IMG/VR virus record: IMGVR_UViG_3300042731_008413 | Coordinates: 1-64,000 of that record | DNA: 64,000 bases | DNA from: a virus | Reading direction: 5' to 3' (one strand) | Part shown: positions 5,370 through 14,261 of the stretch, one piece after another | Position numbering within the stretch: position 1 is the stretch's first letter | How the letters are laid out: each line of letters starts with the position of its first letter | Notes under the pieces: generated by a model | Told to the model about the DNA's origin: nothing | Database searches by the model: none | What the model saw: the letters and a program-made list of their open reading frames with translations, nothing else | Program-made: the position numbers and the translations under genes

Positions 5370-5790
5370 AAGTCATCGTTCAGGGCGATGCCCCCAAGCA
5401 AGCTACACCCTATTCGGTAGGATATGATCTGTCAGCTTCAGAGGATGTTCATTTTTGGCCGTTTCAATTCAAGTGGGTGCCAACCGGAATCCACCTGGCT
5501 GTCCCTGATAACATCCAGGTCGAAATCAGACCCAGAAGTAGTATGGGCATCAGCCAGGGGTGGCTGATTCATTACGGCACCATTGACCCGGACTACTTTG
5601 GCGAGGTCAAGGTTGGGATGATGAATCTCAGGCCGTGGCCGCGGAAGTAAAGTTTGGGCAACGAATTGCTCAGGCTGTTTTTAACCGGTATGTCGAGGTT
5701 GAGTTCGAGGCGGGCCACATCTCTGAGTTGAATGTCCATGCGGTGCGGAGCAAGTATGAGCATACTGGGTTTGGGAGTAGCGGAGAATGA
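5366..5790 (+). pseudogene. dut: trimeric dUTPase split by a 1-nt frameshift near 5646
   Basis: Motifs 1-3 (GYDL, RPRSS, GTIDPDYFG) end at TAA 5650; motifs 4-5 (GQRIAQ, GFGSSG) continue in the -1 frame from 5647 to TGA 5790. Confidence 0.85.
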
Positions 5791-6011
5791 GACGATTAAA
5801 AAAATTATGGCATCAATTGAAGGTTTTGTGGGTTGTTAGCCTTGAATTTGAGAATTTGGCTGGAGCTTTGACTAAACAGGCAAAAACTATTGGCTTTCAT
5901 CAAAATGCGATTTATGATCTTTAGTTGAAAATGGGCCAAGAAACTGTGGTACACGAAGACCAACGATGGCTTCGTTTTGTTGGAAGAAAGGCTTTGGAAT
6001 ATGACTCTTGA
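5787..6011 (+). pseudogene. small ORF with an internal TAG at 5922
   Basis: ATGA overlap with dut; frame continues to TGA 6011 overlapping the next ATG. Confidence 0.4.
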
Positions 6012-6342
6012 TTGGATTTGTAATAATTGCAAAACAACTAACTATGGTACTAGCATCACCTACAAAACTCATTGCCAGAAATGCGGAAAGTATTGGGGTG
6101 ATGTAGGCCAGTTTTTGAATGGAGTACCAATGGATGATGGTGGTGAGATTATTCCTCTTCGCCCTTACAGATGGACCTGCCGGCATTGCAATACATTCAA
6201 TGATAATCCGTTTGATGCTTGTAGTAAATGTGGGTTGACACAGAGTTTGACTGATAGTGAAAGACTATTAGTTATCATGCTTGGGATTATGAGTGTGATT
6301 GTGTTAATCCTTATTGTAATCCTCGCAGTCATTACACTGTAA
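6001..6342 (+). CDS. double zinc-ribbon protein with C-terminal TM anchor
   Basis: WxCxxC...CxxCG twice (RanBP2-like); hydrophobic C-terminus. Confidence 0.6.
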   Translation: MTLDWICNNCKTTNYGTSITYKTHCQKCGKYWGDVGQFLNGVPMDDGGEIIPLRPYRWTCRHCNTFNDNPFDACSKCGLTQSLTDSERLLVIMLGIMSVIVLILIVILAVITL

Positions 6343-6363
6343 TACTTTTTTGCGGGAAAGTCA

Positions 6364-6747
6364 ATGAATAATTTTACGGAATTTACAAGAAGAATTAGTG
6401 CGTATTTGGATATGATAGATTCGGAAGAAGATTCATCAAAAAAGGGTGAATTGATTTTGGAGGCATTGGCTTGTAACTCTCAGGAGGATGATAGATTTAC
6501 TTTTCAGATTGGTGATTTGGTAATCAACCACTCTATTCAACCCCCGATGCAAAGACACAAATTGGCCATAGTAACTTATAGGCGTAATGGTTACCCTCCC
6601 CCCTTATTTGACTGTTGGTTTCCTGTTTATATGATAAATTATTTAGAGTCACATCCTTTTAACGGAGAAGAGGTTGGACCCGGCTGTATTCACATAGCCA
6701 GCGATGAAGAAATTCTGGCTGTAATGTCTGGAAGTGAATATTACTAG
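6364..6747 (+). CDS. hypothetical protein
   Basis: 127-aa ORF filling the intergenic gap. Confidence 0.5.
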   Translation: MNNFTEFTRRISAYLDMIDSEEDSSKKGELILEALACNSQEDDRFTFQIGDLVINHSIQPPMQRHKLAIVTYRRNGYPPPLFDCWFPVYMINYLESHPFNGEEVGPGCIHIASDEEILAVMSGSEYY

Positions 6748-7363: not shown

Positions 7364-7742
7364 CGTTTCCTATACCCGGCGAGAAATAATAGCCTCCTAT
7401 ACCCTCGACAGCAATTACGTAGCTTCCTATGAAATCTATTACGGTGATACCGAAGTCTGGCGCAAGGTCCAGCCGTTGGGGTCGGTCCTGGCCCTCAATC
7501 CGGCCACCCGCAAGGTGGTGCCGAATTTTGCCAGCTATGACTTCGGGGCGGTGGGGGTGTTGCTGGATGATGCGATGGTGGAATATGGCGACAAGGAAGT
7601 GAACGTGTTGTATAAGGGAGTGGCCAACGAAAAAGCGGTGTGGGATGATGGTCAGTACCAGAACGTGTTACAGGCTACCAGAGACGATTTGGCTGATCGG
7701 ATAACTTTCATTAACGCCGATAAGGTTGACGACTTATGGTAG
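7326..7742 (+). CDS. head decoration protein paralog
   Basis: Aligns by eye with 32513-32920 (ASYTLD/ASYTVD, RKVVPN, AVGV, LADRI.F). Confidence 0.7.
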   Translation: MFDLVSRTNRRDDVSYTRREIIASYTLDSNYVASYEIYYGDTEVWRKVQPLGSVLALNPATRKVVPNFASYDFGAVGVLLDDAMVEYGDKEVNVLYKGVANEKAVWDDGQYQNVLQATRDDLADRITFINADKVDDLW

Positions 7743-9508
7743 CCAAACTTCCCTCGATGGACCAGGAACTCATTCTGGCAATGTCCGACACCGAATGGTG
7801 GCAACAGAAAGCCAGGGTGTGTCGAGACTTGTATCAGGCCGGCCTGAAATTTCCCCAATGGTCTGAGGACCGGGCCAACCTCTGGAATCAAAGCCTGCGT
7901 TTCTTTGTCGATGATTTTATTCAACCCGAACTTCCCTGCCCCAAATTTCACGATGATTGGTACTGGTGGACGGTCAAAGAACAAGCCTATATGAACCTGT
8001 CTCCCCGAGATCACGCCAAGACTACGGTCCATAGCATCAATCGGGTAGTCTGGGAGATTGCTTGCAATCGCAATATTCGTTTCTTTATTACCTTCTCAAC
8101 AACTGATGTGGCCAAACTCATCCTCAGCCAGATCAAGATGCAGCTTACTCAAAACCCCCGGATCGTGGCCGGCTTTGGGCATTTCAATCCAGCCAACCTC
8201 AACCCCGATGAGCGCACCGTCGATCAGGACTGGAGTCAGTATTCCATCACCGTCAACCGGCCTGACTATAGCCTCAAGGACCCCACAGTGGTTGTGGCCG
8301 GAGCGATGACCAACGTATTGTCCAGGCGAGCCGACAGGCTGTACGCCGATGACATCATTTCCGACAAGGTGGCTTTTTCCAAGGCAGAATCGGAGCGGGT
8401 GGAGCGCTGGTATTTTAACGATGTGCAGCCGATTCTGGTTTCGGATGGACAGGAAGTTATCACCGGTACCCCCTATCGCAAGGGGGATTTTTACGACCAG
8501 ATCAAGAACCTGTCTATTGAATATGGGTTGTATCAGGTCTTTGTGGGGGATGCCATCGTCAATGAGGTCCGCAAAGAAACGCTGTGGCCGGAACGGTGGT
8601 CCTACGATGCTCTGATGCGGCAGCGGGCCAAGATGGGGGCTACCCGGTTCAATCGTAACTATCGGTGCCGGGTAACAGACGACAGCGATAGTGTTTTTCC
8701 GATGATTTGGTTTACCGGGGGTGTGTCGGACACAACCGGAGCCTATTATCGGGGCTGCTTTGATGAGACGATTTTGCTTGGCCCCTCCGATGGCACCAAA
8801 GAACGACCTTACCTGCGCTACGTAGTGTTTGGGGTTGACCCGGCTATCAGCGAGGCCAAAGGTAGCTCCTACTTTGCCATCGTTGTGTTGGGGATCGACG
8901 CCAAAGGCCGGGTGGTAGTTTGCGATATCGTTCAGGAGCATCTGGGCTTTGTGGCTCAGAAGCGGGTGCTGGTGGAGTTGGCCCGATTGTGGAATCCGGT
9001 CCATATCGCCGTGGAATCGAACTCCTACCAGAAGGCATTGTTGCAGGGGCTTGAAGCTGAAGCCAGATTTCTACCTATTGTGCCGACCTTTACCACCGCG
9101 GGCAACCCCCCGGAATTGGGTATTACCTCGATGGACGTATTTTTCGAGCAGGGACGGTTCAGGATACCTCGGGGCGATGCTCACAGCCGGCAAAAGACCG
9201 ACATTCTGGTGGAAGAGTTACATTTTTACGGCAAGAACGATACCGATGATCTGGTGATGGCTCTCTGGTTTGCCTTCGAGAGAATGAAAGGTGAGTTAAA
9301 GCGATTGAAAGCCCTCCCCCCGGCCAGTGACTTGATTTTTGCCGACGCCCAACGGTATTGGAACCAGAAGATTATGGGGGTGTCTGGCAATCTGATCCCC
9401 AGGCGGGCTTCATACGTGGCCAGGCACAAGGCGTTTGGTAGCCCGGTGGCAAGTTCACCCCTGAAACGGCTTAAGAAGCTGCGAAAAGAGCAGCAGGAGC
9501 GGTTATAA
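7736..9508 (+). CDS. terL: terminase large subunit
   Basis: PRDHAKTT Walker A, LYADD Walker B, GTP motif III, GVDPA and DDLVMAL nuclease motifs. Confidence 0.9.
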   Translation: MVAKLPSMDQELILAMSDTEWWQQKARVCRDLYQAGLKFPQWSEDRANLWNQSLRFFVDDFIQPELPCPKFHDDWYWWTVKEQAYMNLSPRDHAKTTVHSINRVVWEIACNRNIRFFITFSTTDVAKLILSQIKMQLTQNPRIVAGFGHFNPANLNPDERTVDQDWSQYSITVNRPDYSLKDPTVVVAGAMTNVLSRRADRLYADDIISDKVAFSKAESERVERWYFNDVQPILVSDGQEVITGTPYRKGDFYDQIKNLSIEYGLYQVFVGDAIVNEVRKETLWPERWSYDALMRQRAKMGATRFNRNYRCRVTDDSDSVFPMIWFTGGVSDTTGAYYRGCFDETILLGPSDGTKERPYLRYVVFGVDPAISEAKGSSYFAIVVLGIDAKGRVVVCDIVQEHLGFVAQKRVLVELARLWNPVHIAVESNSYQKALLQGLEAEARFLPIVPTFTTAGNPPELGITSMDVFFEQGRFRIPRGDAHSRQKTDILVEELHFYGKNDTDDLVMALWFAFERMKGELKRLKALPPASDLIFADAQRYWNQKIMGVSGNLIPRRASYVARHKAFGSPVASSPLKRLKKLRKEQQERL

Positions 9509-10929
9509 TGAGCGTTAGACATACAGTATCGATGGCTCAGATGCAGATGCCGAAGATGTACCGGCAACAAAAGGAATCGTGGTGGCAGCGAACGATCTCG
9601 GCGTTAAGGCCGGGGCCTAAACCCCGCTTGACCGAAGTGACCTATCGGGGGGCGCAACCACCCCAACTGACCCAGACGATGAAAAAGATTGGAGAGTATC
9701 GGTCTGATCCCCTGGGCTTCGATACCATCAACGTCATGCGTCGGTATCCGGTCATCAAGTTGGGAATGACGGTCAAATCGGCTCCGATCCTGACTGCCTT
9801 AAGAGAAGCCAGGGTTGAGTGCGAGGACCCCAAGATTGCGGCCTTTATCAAAGAGGTCTTTGTAGATCGGTGGTTACTCAAACTGGCCCAGACCTCCATC
9901 AGCCCCAGCGGAGTGTTTGGGGTAGCTCCCCACGAAAAAGTGTGGGAAACTCAACAGGTCAAGGCCAGTTATGTGGATGACGAGACCGGCGAATCGGTGG
10001 TAGGCTACGATGGCGAGGCCCTGGTCTACAAGAAAATTAAGTTCGTCCATCCTCAGAGTATCGACCGTTTTTTGACCCAGGAAGGCACTCAGGACTTTGC
10101 CGGCTTTGTTCAGATACCGGAGCCGGGCAAAGAGGAACAGCCGGTCGGGGCATACAAAGCCTTTGTGTACGTCAACAAATTTTTGTATGGAGGGTTATGG
10201 GGTGAATCGGAATTCACGGACATCTATCCATATTGGTATTACGCCGAGTTCTTTCGAGCATTACAAGCAGACTATCTCCGCTTTAGGACGGTGCCGCCTA
10301 TCATCGGTTGGGCACCCCCCGGCGTCCGGGAAGATGAAGATGGCAACGAAATCGATAACCTCGAATATGCCGGCGAGGTTCTTCAGGCGGCTCTCGAAAA
10401 TCTCATTGTCATATTGCCTTACGAAATAGATGAGCGGGGTCATAACCAGTGGGGCTACAAAGAGATGTCGATGGAGACCGTTTCCGACGTTTACACCAAA
10501 GGCATCGAGGAACTTGAAGTGGGGATGCTACGTGGTTTGGTGGTCCCGGAACGGACGGTCACCCAAAATATGGCGGCTGTGGGGTCGTACAACCAGGCCG
10601 AAATCCATTCGGAACGGATGCTGGACGCGGCCAAGATGGATGTTGACAACTTTTTGGATGCCTGTAACAACTGGTGTGTGCCGCAGTTGGTTGAGGATAA
10701 CTTTGGGGCTAATTCTCCGCCTTGCAAATTGAGAGTACAGGCATTTTCGGAACAGCTTAAAACCAAGTTGCATAACATTGTTATCGCTCTGCTACAGAAT
10801 GATCGGGAAGGGCGATTAAGCAGGCAGGTGGCTTTTACCCGGTTGTTAGATCAGTTGAATATTCCGTATGTAGTAGGTGATACCGGGTTGCCGGAAATTC
10901 AGGAGGATACCACAGACGAATCCACCTAA
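9508..10929 (+). CDS. portal protein (DUF935/Mu gp29-like)
   Basis: Follows TerL; GVAPHEKVW, LWGES, GSYNQAEIH, LVEDNFG motifs. Confidence 0.85.
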   Translation: MSVRHTVSMAQMQMPKMYRQQKESWWQRTISALRPGPKPRLTEVTYRGAQPPQLTQTMKKIGEYRSDPLGFDTINVMRRYPVIKLGMTVKSAPILTALREARVECEDPKIAAFIKEVFVDRWLLKLAQTSISPSGVFGVAPHEKVWETQQVKASYVDDETGESVVGYDGEALVYKKIKFVHPQSIDRFLTQEGTQDFAGFVQIPEPGKEEQPVGAYKAFVYVNKFLYGGLWGESEFTDIYPYWYYAEFFRALQADYLRFRTVPPIIGWAPPGVREDEDGNEIDNLEYAGEVLQAALENLIVILPYEIDERGHNQWGYKEMSMETVSDVYTKGIEELEVGMLRGLVVPERTVTQNMAAVGSYNQAEIHSERMLDAAKMDVDNFLDACNNWCVPQLVEDNFGANSPPCKLRVQAFSEQLKTKLHNIVIALLQNDREGRLSRQVAFTRLLDQLNIPYVVGDTGLPEIQEDTTDEST

Positions 10930-11045
10930 CGCCACAAAATCAGGGGCGCGTTTTATTAGTTCGCCACCTACCCCGACTTGGAACCACAAGGCTGGGTGGC
11001 TGTAAAATCGAGCTTGGGGCGTCCCCTGCATTTTGATTGTTATAC
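10924..11045 (-). repeat. attC site 4 (122 bp)
   Basis: Minus strand GTATAAC-AATCA-AAATGCAGGGGACGC...GCGCCCCTGATTTT-GTGGC-GTTAGGT with extrahelical bases. Confidence 0.8.
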
Positions 11046-11314
11046 GGCTCATCACGGGGGTAGTGCCACCAAGTTTTCTCAAAATTTCCATTTTCAAACA
11101 TAACAGCTATAGCCAGGTAGCCCTCTGCCGGAAATGGCGGAGATTCCGTATAGCCTAAAATTTTATAGCCTGACACCGAGTATTTATCTTTAATGTCTAT
11201 CAACTCACCGCCGCGTTCGATTAACGAATACGGGGGCGGGTCATTGCTCCGCTTACCGCTGTTTTCAAAAGTAAATAGGGCTGAATTTAATTTAGGGTAT
11301 TTTTTGTACCACAT
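10940..11314 (-). CDS. cassette 4 hypothetical protein (reads through into its attC)
   Basis: GGAG RBS then ATG 11314 (MWYKKYPK...). Confidence 0.55.
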   Translation of the reverse strand: MWYKKYPKLNSALFTFENSGKRSNDPPPYSLIERGGELIDIKDKYSVSGYKILGYTESPPFPAEGYLAIAVMFENGNFEKTWWHYPRDEPYNNQNAGDAPSSILQPPSLVVPSRGRWRTNKTRP

Positions 11315-11346
11315 ACAATTACTCCGGACTATGTTAGCGACGTGCC

Positions 11347-11463
11347 GTATAACGCTACATTTCAGCAGCGCCCCCGGAGACGCCGCTAATCCGATACTAT
11401 GAGCCACGCGCAGACGCCGCCAGAAACCGGGCTGTTGGCGTCTGCTGGAAATGTTTGTTAGGC
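11347..11463 (-). repeat. attC site 3 (117 bp)
   Basis: GCCTAAC-AAACA-TTTCCAGCAGACGCC...GGCGCTGCTGAAA-TGTAGC-GTTATAC; extra C in L'' and extra A on the top strand, the canonical pattern. Confidence 0.9.
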
Positions 11464-11730
11464 GGATGGGTTGTTGATAATCTCAGGCTTCTCAATCCTT
11501 GCAGCATTGATAGTTATGGTAACTTTATCTTTGTGAGGCATCGAAATATTAGCAAGAATGGCATCAAACATTTGGTCAACCCTCACTTCCTCAAAGCCTG
11601 GTAAACTATCAAACTTCATCATAATTGGATTTTCTTCTGTACCTGATACATCTGCCGTAATCCTTTTTCCATCAACCAGAAAAACCAGTTGCAGTTCGTC
11701 TAGCTCAAGCTCAAATGATATACTACCCAT
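11458..11730 (-). CDS. cassette 3 hypothetical protein (90 aa)
   Basis: GAGGAG RBS; stop TAA lies inside the GCCTAAC inverse core. Confidence 0.7.
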   Translation of the reverse strand: MGSISFELELDELQLVFLVDGKRITADVSGTEENPIMMKFDSLPGFEEVRVDQMFDAILANISMPHKDKVTITINAARIEKPEIINNPSA

Positions 11731-11753
11731 TCTTGCTCCTCTCGGCGGTATCC

Positions 11754-11878
11754 GCCTAACGCTGAGTTGTGGCGATTGCGGGGGTGGCGCAATGCCGTTG
11801 ATTAAATGTGCGGTAGTGGCCCCAACCGGCCACAATTAACGGCAAGATTAGCAATTCGCTACGAACGTTTTGTTATAC
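11754..11878 (-). repeat. attC site 2 (125 bp)
   Basis: GTATAAC-AAAAC-GTTCGTAGCGAATTGC...GCAATCGCCACAAC-TCAGC-GTTAGGC. Confidence 0.85.
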
Positions 11879-12022
11879 CGCTTTTACATTTTTACAAACA
11901 GTACAACGCCAACCAGGAGACCCTTGATTTCCTTTTGGGGCGAAATTGTGAACACGAATGCCTTTGCCGTGTTCTTTGTCTTGGAAGCTATGTTTGCAAT
12001 TACATTTTAGTTTCTTTACCAT
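11873..12022 (-). CDS. cassette 2 small Zn-binding protein (49 aa; not in the ORF track)
   Basis: MVKKLKCNCKHSFQDKEHGKGIRVHNFAPKGNQGSPGWRCTVCKNVKAV; AAGGAG RBS; stop inside GTATAAC. Confidence 0.75.
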   Translation of the reverse strand: MVKKLKCNCKHSFQDKEHGKGIRVHNFAPKGNQGSPGWRCTVCKNVKAV

Positions 12023-12047
12023 TTTTTACTCCTTTCCCGCCGAAGCG

Positions 12048-12172
12048 GTATAACGCCCTAAATTTACCCGATTGCGGGCGGGCAATTAAACCCACAATCT
12101 AAGCCGAGATTGCCAGCGCAGGTAGGTTGATGAGTGCGGCGGTAGCAATTCGGGTACAATTTTTTGTTAGGC
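12048..12172 (-). repeat. attC site 1 (125 bp)
   Basis: GCCTAAC-AAAAA-ATTGTACCCGAATTGC...GCAATCGGGTAAAT-TTAGGGC-GTTATAC. Confidence 0.85.
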
Positions 12173-12847
12173 GGCGTGTTGCACAGTTCCAAATAGAGAC
12201 TTCTGTACCGGTCTTATTCCAAGTTTCTCCGCTTTTGGATTGCGGCCTAAGTGCAAAATCCACATTGTTTTTTGACCATCATTGCCTTGCTTGAAATCAT
12301 CACCTTGTGGGCGGTTGTAAACCTGAGTATCAATCCAGTGACTTCGCCCGGTATGCTGACCACCACTATTGGTTGTGTCCCATTGCTTCCAACCGGATGC
12401 GACATAGATAGTGCCTTTATGTCCCCATTGCGTGTCGCTGAAGCTAATTAGCATACGTGGTACAAACGGCTTTTCTGGATACTTGGGGGGATGCTCAGTA
12501 ACCCAATCTTGCTGGATACGCCATCCCCGGCGCTTGCTTCCACGATTACCACGTCCACCGCGCCCAATGCTTTCTGCCATTACCTCTGAGGCAATCAGGC
12601 CGCTATCATCGGCCAACCAAAACCGCCCCAGCATCAAAACTTCCCACTTATCAAGCAGACCAGGATACCCGAACAGACCACGCTTTTTTGTGAAATGCGG
12701 CGATGCCCACAACAACCCACCAACCAGTTCACCGCCAACAAAAACACCGTGCGCCAGCAGTTTGCATCGGATAATACGCCGCTTTAAATAATGGCGTTCA
12801 GATTGCCATTGGTTGAATGAGTTCCTGTCTATTCGCCGGATTTCCAT
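12167..12847 (-). CDS. cassette 1: Mom-family (GNAT-fold) DNA adenine-modification enzyme
   Basis: HYL, GELVG, LGRFWL, LISFSDxxxGHxGTIYxASGW signature; stop inside GCCTAAC. Confidence 0.75.
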   Translation of the reverse strand: MEIRRIDRNSFNQWQSERHYLKRRIIRCKLLAHGVFVGGELVGGLLWASPHFTKKRGLFGYPGLLDKWEVLMLGRFWLADDSGLIASEVMAESIGRGGRGNRGSKRRGWRIQQDWVTEHPPKYPEKPFVPRMLISFSDTQWGHKGTIYVASGWKQWDTTNSGGQHTGRSHWIDTQVYNRPQGDDFKQGNDGQKTMWILHLGRNPKAEKLGIRPVQKSLFGTVQHAA

Positions 12848-12862
12848 AAGCTACTCTCAGCC

Positions 12863-12869
12863 GCCTAAC
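12863..12869 (-). other. putative attI core/first crossover GTTAGGC
   Basis: Core with no preceding attC stem, between the promoter and cassette 1. Confidence 0.6.
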
Positions 12870-12890
12870 AATATAATTACCTATCCATAT

Positions 12891-12924
12891 TTGGTAATTA
12901 TAGCACATTATGCTATAATGTCAA
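12891..12924. promoter_or_regulatory. overlapping divergent sigma70 promoters (Pc-like on -, Pint-like on +)
   Basis: Minus: TTGACA-16-TATAAT with TGn; plus: TTGGTA-17-TATAAT with TGn; both within the inverted repeat ATTATAGCA-N5-TGCTATAAT. Confidence 0.75.
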
Positions 12925-12926
12925 GT

Positions 12927-13532
12927 ATGAAACAATCAACTCGCAACCAGTACAGAAAGTTACTGTCACAACTTAAGCGATGGTCAATCTCTGAGCTTAA
13001 CCAATCAGACATAGCGAAACTTACCCAAGGTAACATTGATGATTATGAGATTTATCTTATTGATGATCGTCAATTATCACCGCGGTCTATCAATAATCAT
13101 CGACAGGCGATAAACAGATATTACACCTCTCTCGGTGTAGATATCCGTTTATCCTTGCGGTCTATTTCGGTTGGCAAAAAAGTGGTAGAGACAATCAGCC
13201 AGGACTTGGCTGAACTGATAATAGAAAAGTCCCCCAGGTTTTTTCAGCCAATCTTAGAGAAAATCTATTTTGATCTCGTTCCTCCCGGTCAAGTAATCAA
13301 GTGTTTCCCGTCACCACGGGGTAAACACATTTCGTTACAAGCAGTTAATAACCAGATAGCAGCAATAACGGACGGTTTGGGTATAACAAAAAGAGTCAGG
13401 GCAAGCACATTAAGGCAGTCTGGCATCGTTCATCAGCTTGAGCAATATGGACCAGCGGTAGTAATGGGCAAAACCGGGTTAAGCCCACTTACAATAGAGA
13501 GGTATTTGAGGTGCACCAATAATGGCCGATAG
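12927..13532 (+). CDS. degenerate tyrosine-recombinase (XerD/IntI-like) protein
   Basis: N-terminal SAM-like domain (LSPRSINNHRQAI); catalytic boxes eroded: no box I Arg, ASTLRQS for PHTLRHS, TGL for LGH, TIERY retained. Confidence 0.65.
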   Translation: MKQSTRNQYRKLLSQLKRWSISELNQSDIAKLTQGNIDDYEIYLIDDRQLSPRSINNHRQAINRYYTSLGVDIRLSLRSISVGKKVVETISQDLAELIIEKSPRFFQPILEKIYFDLVPPGQVIKCFPSPRGKHISLQAVNNQIAAITDGLGITKRVRASTLRQSGIVHQLEQYGPAVVMGKTGLSPLTIERYLRCTNNGR

Positions 13533-14028
13533 AGAATACCAATTTCAGTGCAGCCTATGTCGCTGGCTTGATGTCTATTATCCTCACGCTTATTATCGAA
13601 GCGACCTCGGTGGCATCCGCTTAACCAAAGGGCTTGCTATAAAAGCCAAAAATATTCAGAAGCATCGAGGCCATCCAGACTTTGCTATCTATGAACCAAG
13701 CGGTAAATTCCCTTGCCTAATTCTCGAACTAAAAATAGATGAATCTGATGTGTTCCTGAAGCGAGGTGGTATCCCATCCGGTGACAAAGGGACTCACTTG
13801 CTGGAACAGGTGGCAATGATTTTGATGCTTAGAGAGCGAGGTTTTGCGGTTGATTTGACAATTGGCCAACAGCAAACCGAGCAGATGATTGGTCGTTACC
13901 TAGACAGTGACTTTGATATGGCTTGCTACACCGGCAATGTTAGCCGAATTATTCAAGAGGCGACTGAGGATCAAATCAGGATGGCTCAGGCGGGGCATCT
14001 GGTTGTTTACGATTACATCAGGGGTTGA
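13522..14028 (+). CDS. VRR-NUC-like PD-(D/E)xK nuclease/resolvase
   Basis: EYQFQ, GHPDF, LELK, Q...L...GF. Confidence 0.7.
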   Translation: MADREYQFQCSLCRWLDVYYPHAYYRSDLGGIRLTKGLAIKAKNIQKHRGHPDFAIYEPSGKFPCLILELKIDESDVFLKRGGIPSGDKGTHLLEQVAMILMLRERGFAVDLTIGQQQTEQMIGRYLDSDFDMACYTGNVSRIIQEATEDQIRMAQAGHLVVYDYIRG

Positions 14029-14053
14029 CAAAATTACTATTATAATGTAATAT
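14025..14053 (+). promoter_or_regulatory. promoter with overlapping operator driving the glycosylation cluster
   Basis: TTGACA-17-TAATAT with TATTATAATGTAATA at 14038-14052. Confidence 0.7.
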
Positions 14054-14060
14054 ATTTTCT

Positions 14061-14261
14061 ATGAGCGACATATTTGCAATCTGGCATAAACCCGGCGACG
14101 AATGGCTAACCGACCATTCAGGCCGGGTTATTGTTTTTCCGAACGAATCCTCCGCTACCCAGTTCCAAAAACTGGTTGATGTCGAACCCCCCTTAGCCCC
14201 CGAGATGGAAATTAGACTCTATAAAGACGAATTGGATGCCATCAGATATGAAGAGCTATGA
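14061..14261 (+). CDS. hypothetical protein
   Basis: 66-aa ORF immediately after the promoter. Confidence 0.5.
   Translation: MSDIFAIWHKPGDEWLTDHSGRVIVFPNESSATQFQKLVDVEPPLAPEMEIRLYKDELDAIRYEEL

Follow-up and report, generated by a model that had tools for sequence, protein, structure and literature searches.

An integron-type cassette array and its conserved recombinase-like neighbour in the genome of an uncultured phage

The window analysed here comprises the first 64 kb (64,000 nucleotides) of the 83,420-bp IMG/VR virus record IMGVR_UViG_3300042731_008413, an uncultured phage genome that ends in direct terminal repeats and carries a completeness rating of 100 %. Between the portal gene and the gene of a 201-amino-acid (aa) recombinase-like protein (P0001) lies an integron-like array of four gene cassettes, the subject of this study (Table 1). 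The four small open reading frames (ORFs) of the array are all located on the minus strand, with plus-strand phage genes continuing past it, and the TAA stop of the portal gene (10927-10929) falls inside the R' core of attC A, the last site of the array. Read along the minus strand from 12870 to 10924, the array starts with the half-site GTTAGGCGGC, followed by four ORFs which precede attC sites D, C, B and A, respectively.

Table 1. Features of the cassette array and its flanks (window positions)
Feature	Position	Strand	Characteristics
Large terminase gene	7736-9508	+	assigned by profile searches
Mu-type portal gene (left boundary of the array)	9508..10929	+	PF06074 Portal_Mu, E 4e-18; phrog_113
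attC A (last of array)	10924-11045 (122 nt)	-	R'' GTATAAC, R' GTTAGGT; model R1 93.6 bits, E 4e-21
Cassette 4 ORF, 124 aa	10940..11314	-	reads through attC A; cassette 10930-11352 by the G/TT rule
attC B	11347-11463 (117 nt)	-	R'' GCCTAAC, R' GTTATAC; R1 87.0 bits, E 2e-19; bulged arms
Cassette 3 ORF, 91 aa	11458..11733	-	stop in R'' of attC B; cassette 11353-11759
attC C	11754-11878 (125 nt)	-	R1 58.6 bits, E 2e-12
Cassette 2 ORF, 49 aa, CxC...CxxC (zinc-ribbon-like)	11873..12022	-	stop in R'' of attC C; cassette 11760-12053
attC D	12048-12172 (125 nt)	-	R'' GCCTAAC, R' GTTATAC; R1 85.3 bits, E 4e-19
Cassette 1 ORF, 226 aa, Mom-like DNA-modification protein	12167..12847	-	PF25680 Mom, E 1.3e-11; phrog_1384, E 1.2e-11
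attI-like junction	12861..12896	-	array strand reads ...GGTAATTATATT/GTTAGGCGGC; defined by position and conservation
Divergent promoter of the recombinase-like gene	12891..12919	+	10/12 match with TG; overlaps the Pc-like promoter
Pc-like promoter	12924->12897	-	TTGACA-16-TG-TATAAT; 12/12 match, extended -10; reads into the array
P0001 gene, 201 aa, relative of IntI/XerA-type tyrosine recombinases	12927..13532	+	SAM-like N-terminal domain; internally deleted

attC sites and cassettes

All four sites begin with GCCTAAC or GTATAAC and an A-rich 5-nt spacer (AATCA, AAACA, AAAAC or AAAAA) and end with GTTATAC, GTTAGGC or GTTAGGT. The arm behind the spacer pairs with the arm preceding the last core and carries two extra bases on the first (AAC) side, as in CATTTC[C]AGCAG[A]CGCC versus CATTTC-AGCAG-CGCC or, in attC A, CAAAAT[G]CAGGGG[A]CGC versus CAAAAT-CAGGGG-CGC; 6 bp separate the two extra bases in the gapped arm alignments. 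attC B folds as a hairpin from end to end. Described traits of attC sites are two or three extrahelical bases with a 6-bp stem separating the first from the last, their location on the top-strand arm with the AAC, with the far one a conserved T on the bottom strand, an unpaired central spacer of 5-6 nt and a total length of 57-141 bp (Nivina et al., PMC5027507). The lengths of the four window sites (117-125 nt) lie inside these limits.

Base pairing was assessed with 20 aligned sites from six contigs, gathered as homologous elements in viral contigs. Invariant across this set are only AAC and GTT, both present in 20/20 sites, and a few bases next to them; A likewise occupies the second extra position in all 20 (T on the bottom strand). 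Of the aligned cells, 84.4 % pair, as compared with 34-41 % if the partners are slid, the value for arm cells being 81 %, compensatory changes occur in 14 of the 16 arm pairs, and the covariation score amounts to 0.469 versus 0.07-0.12 with slid partners. A covariance model built solely from phage sites (R1) yielded 26 matches in 175 kb of phage DNA, all of them in arrays. Four of these matches locate in the window and correspond exactly to the four sites, and two more were obtained from the part of the genome past 64 kb. No match was found in 142 kb from 18 bacterial genomes. In the positive control, the 5 kb around class 1 integron In2 (plasmid R100), the attC of aadA1 was detected on the correct strand with 40.6 bits (E 2e-9) as the only match with E <0.9, and the same two extra bases were aligned. 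The model discriminates between strands, one site scoring 67.2 bits on one and 3.7 bits on the other. Rfam contains no family matching the sites. A cruder scan of the 83-kb genome for cores plus bulged stems gave five matches with a score of at least 22 and none in 30 Markov simulations; one of the five (genome 66346-66403) is an ordinary terminator to which R1 does not respond, and site C stayed below the threshold of the scan, yet was found by the covariance model.

It is scarcely conceivable that the elements are generic intergenic palindromes, i.e. terminators or repeats resembling repetitive extragenic palindromes (REP) or miniature inverted-repeat transposable elements (MITE), with AAC- and GTT-like ends by chance. 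Their positions between convergent or tandem genes, a terminator-like sub-hairpin in one of them and the modest z-scores of whole-element folding (-1.1 to -1.3) would agree with such a nature, but not stems which covary while the sequence varies, extra bases fixed on one arm only, strand-specific model scores, the cross-detection of the aadA1 attC by R1 and the failure of this model to match the true terminator. The complementarity of leading and trailing cores described below would also be left without explanation. Judged by covariation and model scores, the four elements, which a preceding sequence-only reading had described as imperfect palindromes of attC architecture and which were all recovered in place, are considered genuine attC sites belonging to the structural class of the bacterial ones.

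The TAA stop of three of the four cassette ORFs is part of GCCTAAC or GTATAAC (positions 12167, 11873 and 11458). A Shine-Dalgarno motif precedes each cassette ORF, cassette 3 possessing a GAGGAG ribosome-binding site ahead of its ATG. In every unit, the leading core is complementary to the trailing core of the same cassette, over 12 nt in two cases and 11 nt in a third (each at 100 %) and, in the fourth, over 15 nt at 87 % with 10 perfectly matched nt in the centre. The two cores of any single site differ from each other (GCCTAAC versus GTTATAC), the pattern left by the insertion of circular cassettes cut at G/TT. The half-site GTTAGGCGGC at the start of the array is the perfect complement of the R'' of cassette 1. 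The four units carry the circular-permutation footprint of cassettes inserted at G/TT, and the same rule was observed in a 70-kb viral contig (L009) and in the second array of the genome. Both the stops in the inverse core and the footprint had been proposed from the letters of the window and were borne out, perfect stretches of 10-12 nt being observed in all four units.

Cassette 1 (12054-12869) occupies the promoter-proximal slot. Profile searches revealed no family match for the ORFs of cassettes 2, 3 and 4, and look-ups in the Atlas provided no function for cassettes 3 and 4. Anti-restriction is likely to be one use of the array, because a Mom-like gene resides in its first slot and a DNA methylase in a cassette of a relative. 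The ORF of cassette 4 runs through the attC site in the window (10940-11045) as well as in L009 (2001-2106), its last 30-odd residues being encoded by the site. Between the two copies, the ratio of non-synonymous to synonymous divergence (dN/dS) is 0.08-0.12, and dS amounts to 0.62 for the whole ORF versus 1.01 for the part before the attC; this lower silent divergence would fit a double constraint on the attC-encoded part.

Junction, promoters and the P0001 family

The array opens at the attI-like junction, where the motif GTNAT.ATATWGTTA is kept in an alignment of four platforms, a platform consisting of a P0001-type gene, its promoters and the junction. Both hexamers of the Pc-like promoter are invariant in these four, and no comparable promoter was detected inside the array, the best other match on the minus strand locating in the junction just upstream. 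The ATG of the P0001 gene lies 8 nt past its -10 hexamer, counted from the end of the latter, and the intervening nucleotides contain no Shine-Dalgarno motif; the mRNA is probably leaderless. A consensus promoter facing the array and a divergent recombinase-like gene had both been anticipated, and both exist on the expected strands. Another near-consensus promoter (TTGACA ... TAATAT/TATAAT) is situated at 14027-14060, before a 66-aa gene at 14061; strong promoters of the sigma-70 type are thus not confined to the array junction in this phage.

The N-terminal domain of P0001 matches PF02899 above the cut-off (25.6 bits); no match was obtained with PF00589 at E up to 1 or with TIGR02249. An exhaustive profile search retrieved about 19 diverged clusters that share this form, with lengths of 127-236 aa (all but one 183-236), after which the search lists full-length recombinases, each matched as two separate stretches. 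Among solved structures, IntI4 (VchIntIA, PDB 2a3v) is the best relative of the family profile (E 4.7e-16). Family positions 11-126 align with IntI4 16-130 and positions 143-208 with IntI4 238-304, and about 107 residues (IntI4 131-237) are missing from the family. The IntI-specific insert would lie in this missing segment. With 62 bits for IntI4 and 55 bits for XerA (5hxy), the margin is small, and descent may be from IntI specifically or from a Xer-like enzyme. Four catalytic positions can be aligned: H267 is replaced by Ser and H293 by Leu, R270 is Arg in P0001 and varies in the family (R, H, Y, Q, F), and the Tyr aligned with Y302 alone persists, being present in at least 90 % of the members. 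The top NCBIfam match of the L009 homologue is the integron integrase, with 46 bits against a cut-off of 265. The structure model of P0001 (predicted local distance difference test, pLDDT, 88) is all-helical and devoid of a beta-sheet, the catalytic domain being represented by its last helices only. Its fold matches XerA, IntI4, lambda Int and Cre, best XerA and IntI4 with template modelling (TM) scores of 0.65-0.68 normalised to the model.

Since the catalytic domain is reduced to the last helices, lacks the beta-sheet and is not matched by PF00589, P0001 is regarded as a homologue of tyrosine recombinases and not as a working member. The dN/dS of 0.124 between two homologues indicates that the family is under purifying selection and does not represent a decaying pseudogene. 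The sequence-only reading had termed the gene a degenerate integrase, a description that needs correction in so far as it implies decay. P0001 appears to be a conserved working protein which can hardly be a conventional recombinase.

A minimal, non-canonical recombinase that performs attC x attI exchange by means of the conserved Tyr is a very improbable alternative. The fold of the protein, the retention of the Tyr and the constant intI position of the gene beside the junction of all four platforms are compatible with it; opposed to it are the lost residues, which include the segment expected to carry Arg I and the beta-hairpin Lys, the substitutions at H267 and H293, the variability at R270, and the all-helical model together with the negative result for PF00589.

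Related platforms and a second array

P0001-type genes with an overlapping promoter pair and a similar GTTA junction were also found in L009, in the 82.5-kb viral contig L010 and in the metagenome contigs L013/L014. In all of them an attC array begins at the junction and runs away from the gene, L009 having at least nine sites and L010 four. No homology between the window phage and the flanks of the platforms was detected by tblastx (L009 and L010; L013 via its 470-aa upstream gene only). By this comparison, the same platform would reside in four unrelated backbones, each time with different cassettes. In L009, a 398-aa protein with repeated helix-turn-helix (HTH) units and an endonuclease match (5507-6703; phrog_4645, E 7e-55) is encoded between the end of the array and the capsid-side genes. 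A weak similarity of contig L004 to the C-terminus of P0001 was discarded, as it belongs to a small unrelated ORF.

Individual cassettes and sites are shared between these genomes. Cassette 4 with attC A is 86.5 % identical to L009 1691-2127, which is the second cassette of L009 and has a different rank. attC C shares 84-86 % identity with sites of L009, of L010 and of the second array. For attC D, the identity to L009 2925-3049 is 80 % and limited to the site, the gene not being included; attC types C and D adjoin other genes in L009. These sequence identities provide evidence, by direct comparison, that one and the same cassette, like the attC types, moves between phages that are unrelated to each other.

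Three relatives of the window phage with portals 72 % identical to that in Table 1 harbour one unrelated minus-strand gene in the slot of the array and no array or site there. Two of the three possess a plus-strand array upstream of the terminase gene instead (L001 2572-4034, L003 425-2202), and the cassettes of the relatives code for an FtsK-gamma-domain protein, an N6_N4 DNA methylase (L001) and an unassigned 124-aa protein. A dCTP-deaminase-like gene follows the arrays of L001 and L003. The variable content at the 3' end of the portal gene, the place at which a comparison of related phages had been recommended, and the differing cassettes of the four platforms support the view, advanced beforehand, of a hotspot for accessory genes.

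The second array of the genome (genome 66938-67488, L007 2938-3488, minus strand) comprises two sites and one 100-aa cassette. One site is a 124-nt near-copy of site C (genome 66938-67061), the other measures 95 nt, and the cassette is bounded by a perfect GTTATATGCC/GGCATATAAC footprint. The next unit there is a small RepB/RHH-like ORF (PF10723, E 0.002, below the cut-off), perhaps accompanied by a 180-aa ORF with terminators of its own. P0006 (genome 66246-66869, L007 2246-2869, plus strand), the gene of which converges on the second array, was regarded by eye as a degenerate recombinase domain on account of motif spacing. This candidate was dropped after negative results with Pfam, NCBIfam, PDB sequences and profile comparison.

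The comparative data also bear on the notion of a static fossil, in which a fragment of a chromosomal integron of bacteria, decayed intI included, would have entered by a single illegitimate recombination, and no exchange takes place in the phages. Such an origin is unlikely. The lack of an active integrase in the phage and of any excision variant (with contigs only from the run that holds the locus) would be in its favour, and illegitimate recombination is discussed as a route into phages by Qi et al. (PMC9892861). It does not account for the platform in four unrelated backbones with differing cassettes and a shared cassette at different rank, or for a P0001 family with low dN/dS and about 19 diverged clusters, none of which attains the length of a normal integrase. 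Moreover, peptide patterns retrieved no relative of P0001 among 185,579 bacterial species representatives, and the second array, together with the arrays located elsewhere in the relatives, suggests repeated insertion.

Class and proposed working of the array

A complete integron requires an intI gene with the RKHRHY active site plus the extra segment specific to IntI, an attI site and a Pc promoter, while at least two close attC sites with no integron integrase nearby define a cluster of attC sites lacking integron integrases (CALIN) according to IntegronFinder. The complete 83,420-bp genome yielded no match to TIGR02249 (integron integrase) or to PF00589 (catalytic domain). P0001, in which the region of IntI4 131-237 and most catalytic residues are absent, does not qualify as the product of an intI gene, and the four sites are grouped within 1.25 kb. 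Because the phage encodes no IntI, the array is a CALIN and not a complete integron, and the earlier description as an intI-attI-array arrangement has to be corrected in this respect.

Taken together, the locus probably represents a genuine integron-type cassette array within a complete phage genome. The host would provide, in trans, an integron integrase which inserts, excises and shuffles the cassettes, acting on the folded bottom strand (plus strand of the window) in attC x attI-like or attC x attC reactions, and the array would be expressed from the outward Pc-like promoter. The array may thereby allow the phage to sample small accessory genes. P0001 would descend from an integrase of the IntI/Xer type which has lost the beta-sheet core and most catalytic residues. 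It may still bind the DNA of the platform and regulate the two promoters, or help or limit the host enzyme; a retained DNA-binding or regulatory role is proposed because the gene is conserved and always located beside such arrays.

Several observations weigh against this explanation. On the bottom strand, C predominates as the first extra base, G being usual in published sites, and GTATAAC and GTTATAC each deviate at one position from RYYYAAC and GTTRRRY. The attI-like site is recognised by position and conservation and by nothing else, and the function of P0001 is deduced from its conservation and position. No recombination event was seen; the sole sequencing run with the locus is kept as contigs, in which no joint or deletion variant occurs and which are uninformative on excision. 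Neither the search with P0001 peptide patterns nor that with an attC 18-mer identified the host and hence any IntI of the host. The 18-mer, taken from attC type A, gave 18 matches in bacterial genomes, which is about the number estimated for chance, and none of them is an attC according to R1.

A more far-reaching version, to be regarded as tentative, is that some phages maintain an integron-like platform of their own, composed of the attI-like junction, the outward promoter and, as a working part, a domesticated dead paralogue of IntI. P0001 would then attach to the junction or to folded attC sites and recruit, steer or restrain the host integrase, or control expression of the array. Catalysis would be borrowed from the host, and the capture site would be owned by the phage.

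Irrespective of this version, cassette arrays have precedents in phages. Qi, Rajabal, Ghaly, Tetu and Gillings (2023, Front Microbiol, PMC9892861) report 17 CALINs and few integrons in 10,705 phage genomes from NCBI, a survey of cultured-phage genomes and not of metagenomic viral contigs; attC arrays borne by phages became known for the first time in that year, from a small number of cultured phages. Five methylases were found in phage cassettes, and IntI1 recombined five of six phage attC sites tested. The statement that integrons are chiefly known from chromosomes, plasmids and transposons, from which the sequence-only reading had started, is outdated in view of these published phage components. 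The present array resembles the CALINs of that survey in its co-oriented attC sites (at least two) bounding small cassettes, in the absence of IntI and in DNA-modification cargo, here a Mom-like protein and, in relative L001, the N6_N4 methylase. It differs from them, as far as the description consulted goes, by the attI-like junction, the consensus outward promoter and the conserved IntI-like gene, and also by two arrays per genome and a platform recurring in four unrelated uncultured backbones.

With complete integrons such as In2 of Tn21 (R100), the locus shares a recombinase-family gene on one strand and junction plus array on the other, a promoter adjoining this gene, and the attC architecture, as evident from the cross-detection of the aadA1 site. 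In contrast to these, the gene in intI position has no catalytic core and remains far under the integrase cut-off, and the outward promoter is intergenic and overlaps that of the gene itself. Pc of class 1 integrons resides within intI1. An array persisting beside an integrase gene unable to catalyse is also known from sedentary chromosomal integrons with inactivated intI. The latter, e.g. in Xanthomonas, are lineage-specific pseudogenes with frameshifts or truncations, whereas the P0001 family displays one compact intact form across its diverged clusters at a dN/dS of 0.12.

The array as such is of an already known kind, i.e. a phage CALIN, and the conserved, catalytically dead IntI-like neighbour appears to be the new part. 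No description of such a gene combined with an attI-like junction and a promoter was found by full-text searches on integrons in phages. The locus adds a complete uncultured phage with two arrays as well as a platform gene putatively derived from an integron-type integrase, in which the chemistry is lost and selection is kept. Should P0001 modulate the integrase of the host, phages would make active use of the bacterial cassette pool and not just carry cassettes by accident, and the protein would be a naturally occurring case in which a dead recombinase subunit cooperates with a live one.

As to provenance, the locus occurs in one sequencing run, a wetland metagenome which is probably the source, and two other runs contain pieces of 33-166 nt. 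In the wetland sample, a 164-nt contig of low depth contains the outer arm of a type C attC (window 11843-11875) with different flanks on both sides, which hints at further copies of the type C site in other contexts within the same community. The portal protein has no tblastn match among cultured phage records. Beyond the window, an actin-like segregation protein is encoded on the plus strand (genome 64240-65247, L007 240-1247; ALP_N, E 4e-20; MreB-like_C, E 6e-16). Its presence and the absence of an integrase suggest possible persistence of the phage as a plasmid-like prophage, a state that would leave a host integrase time for acting on it.

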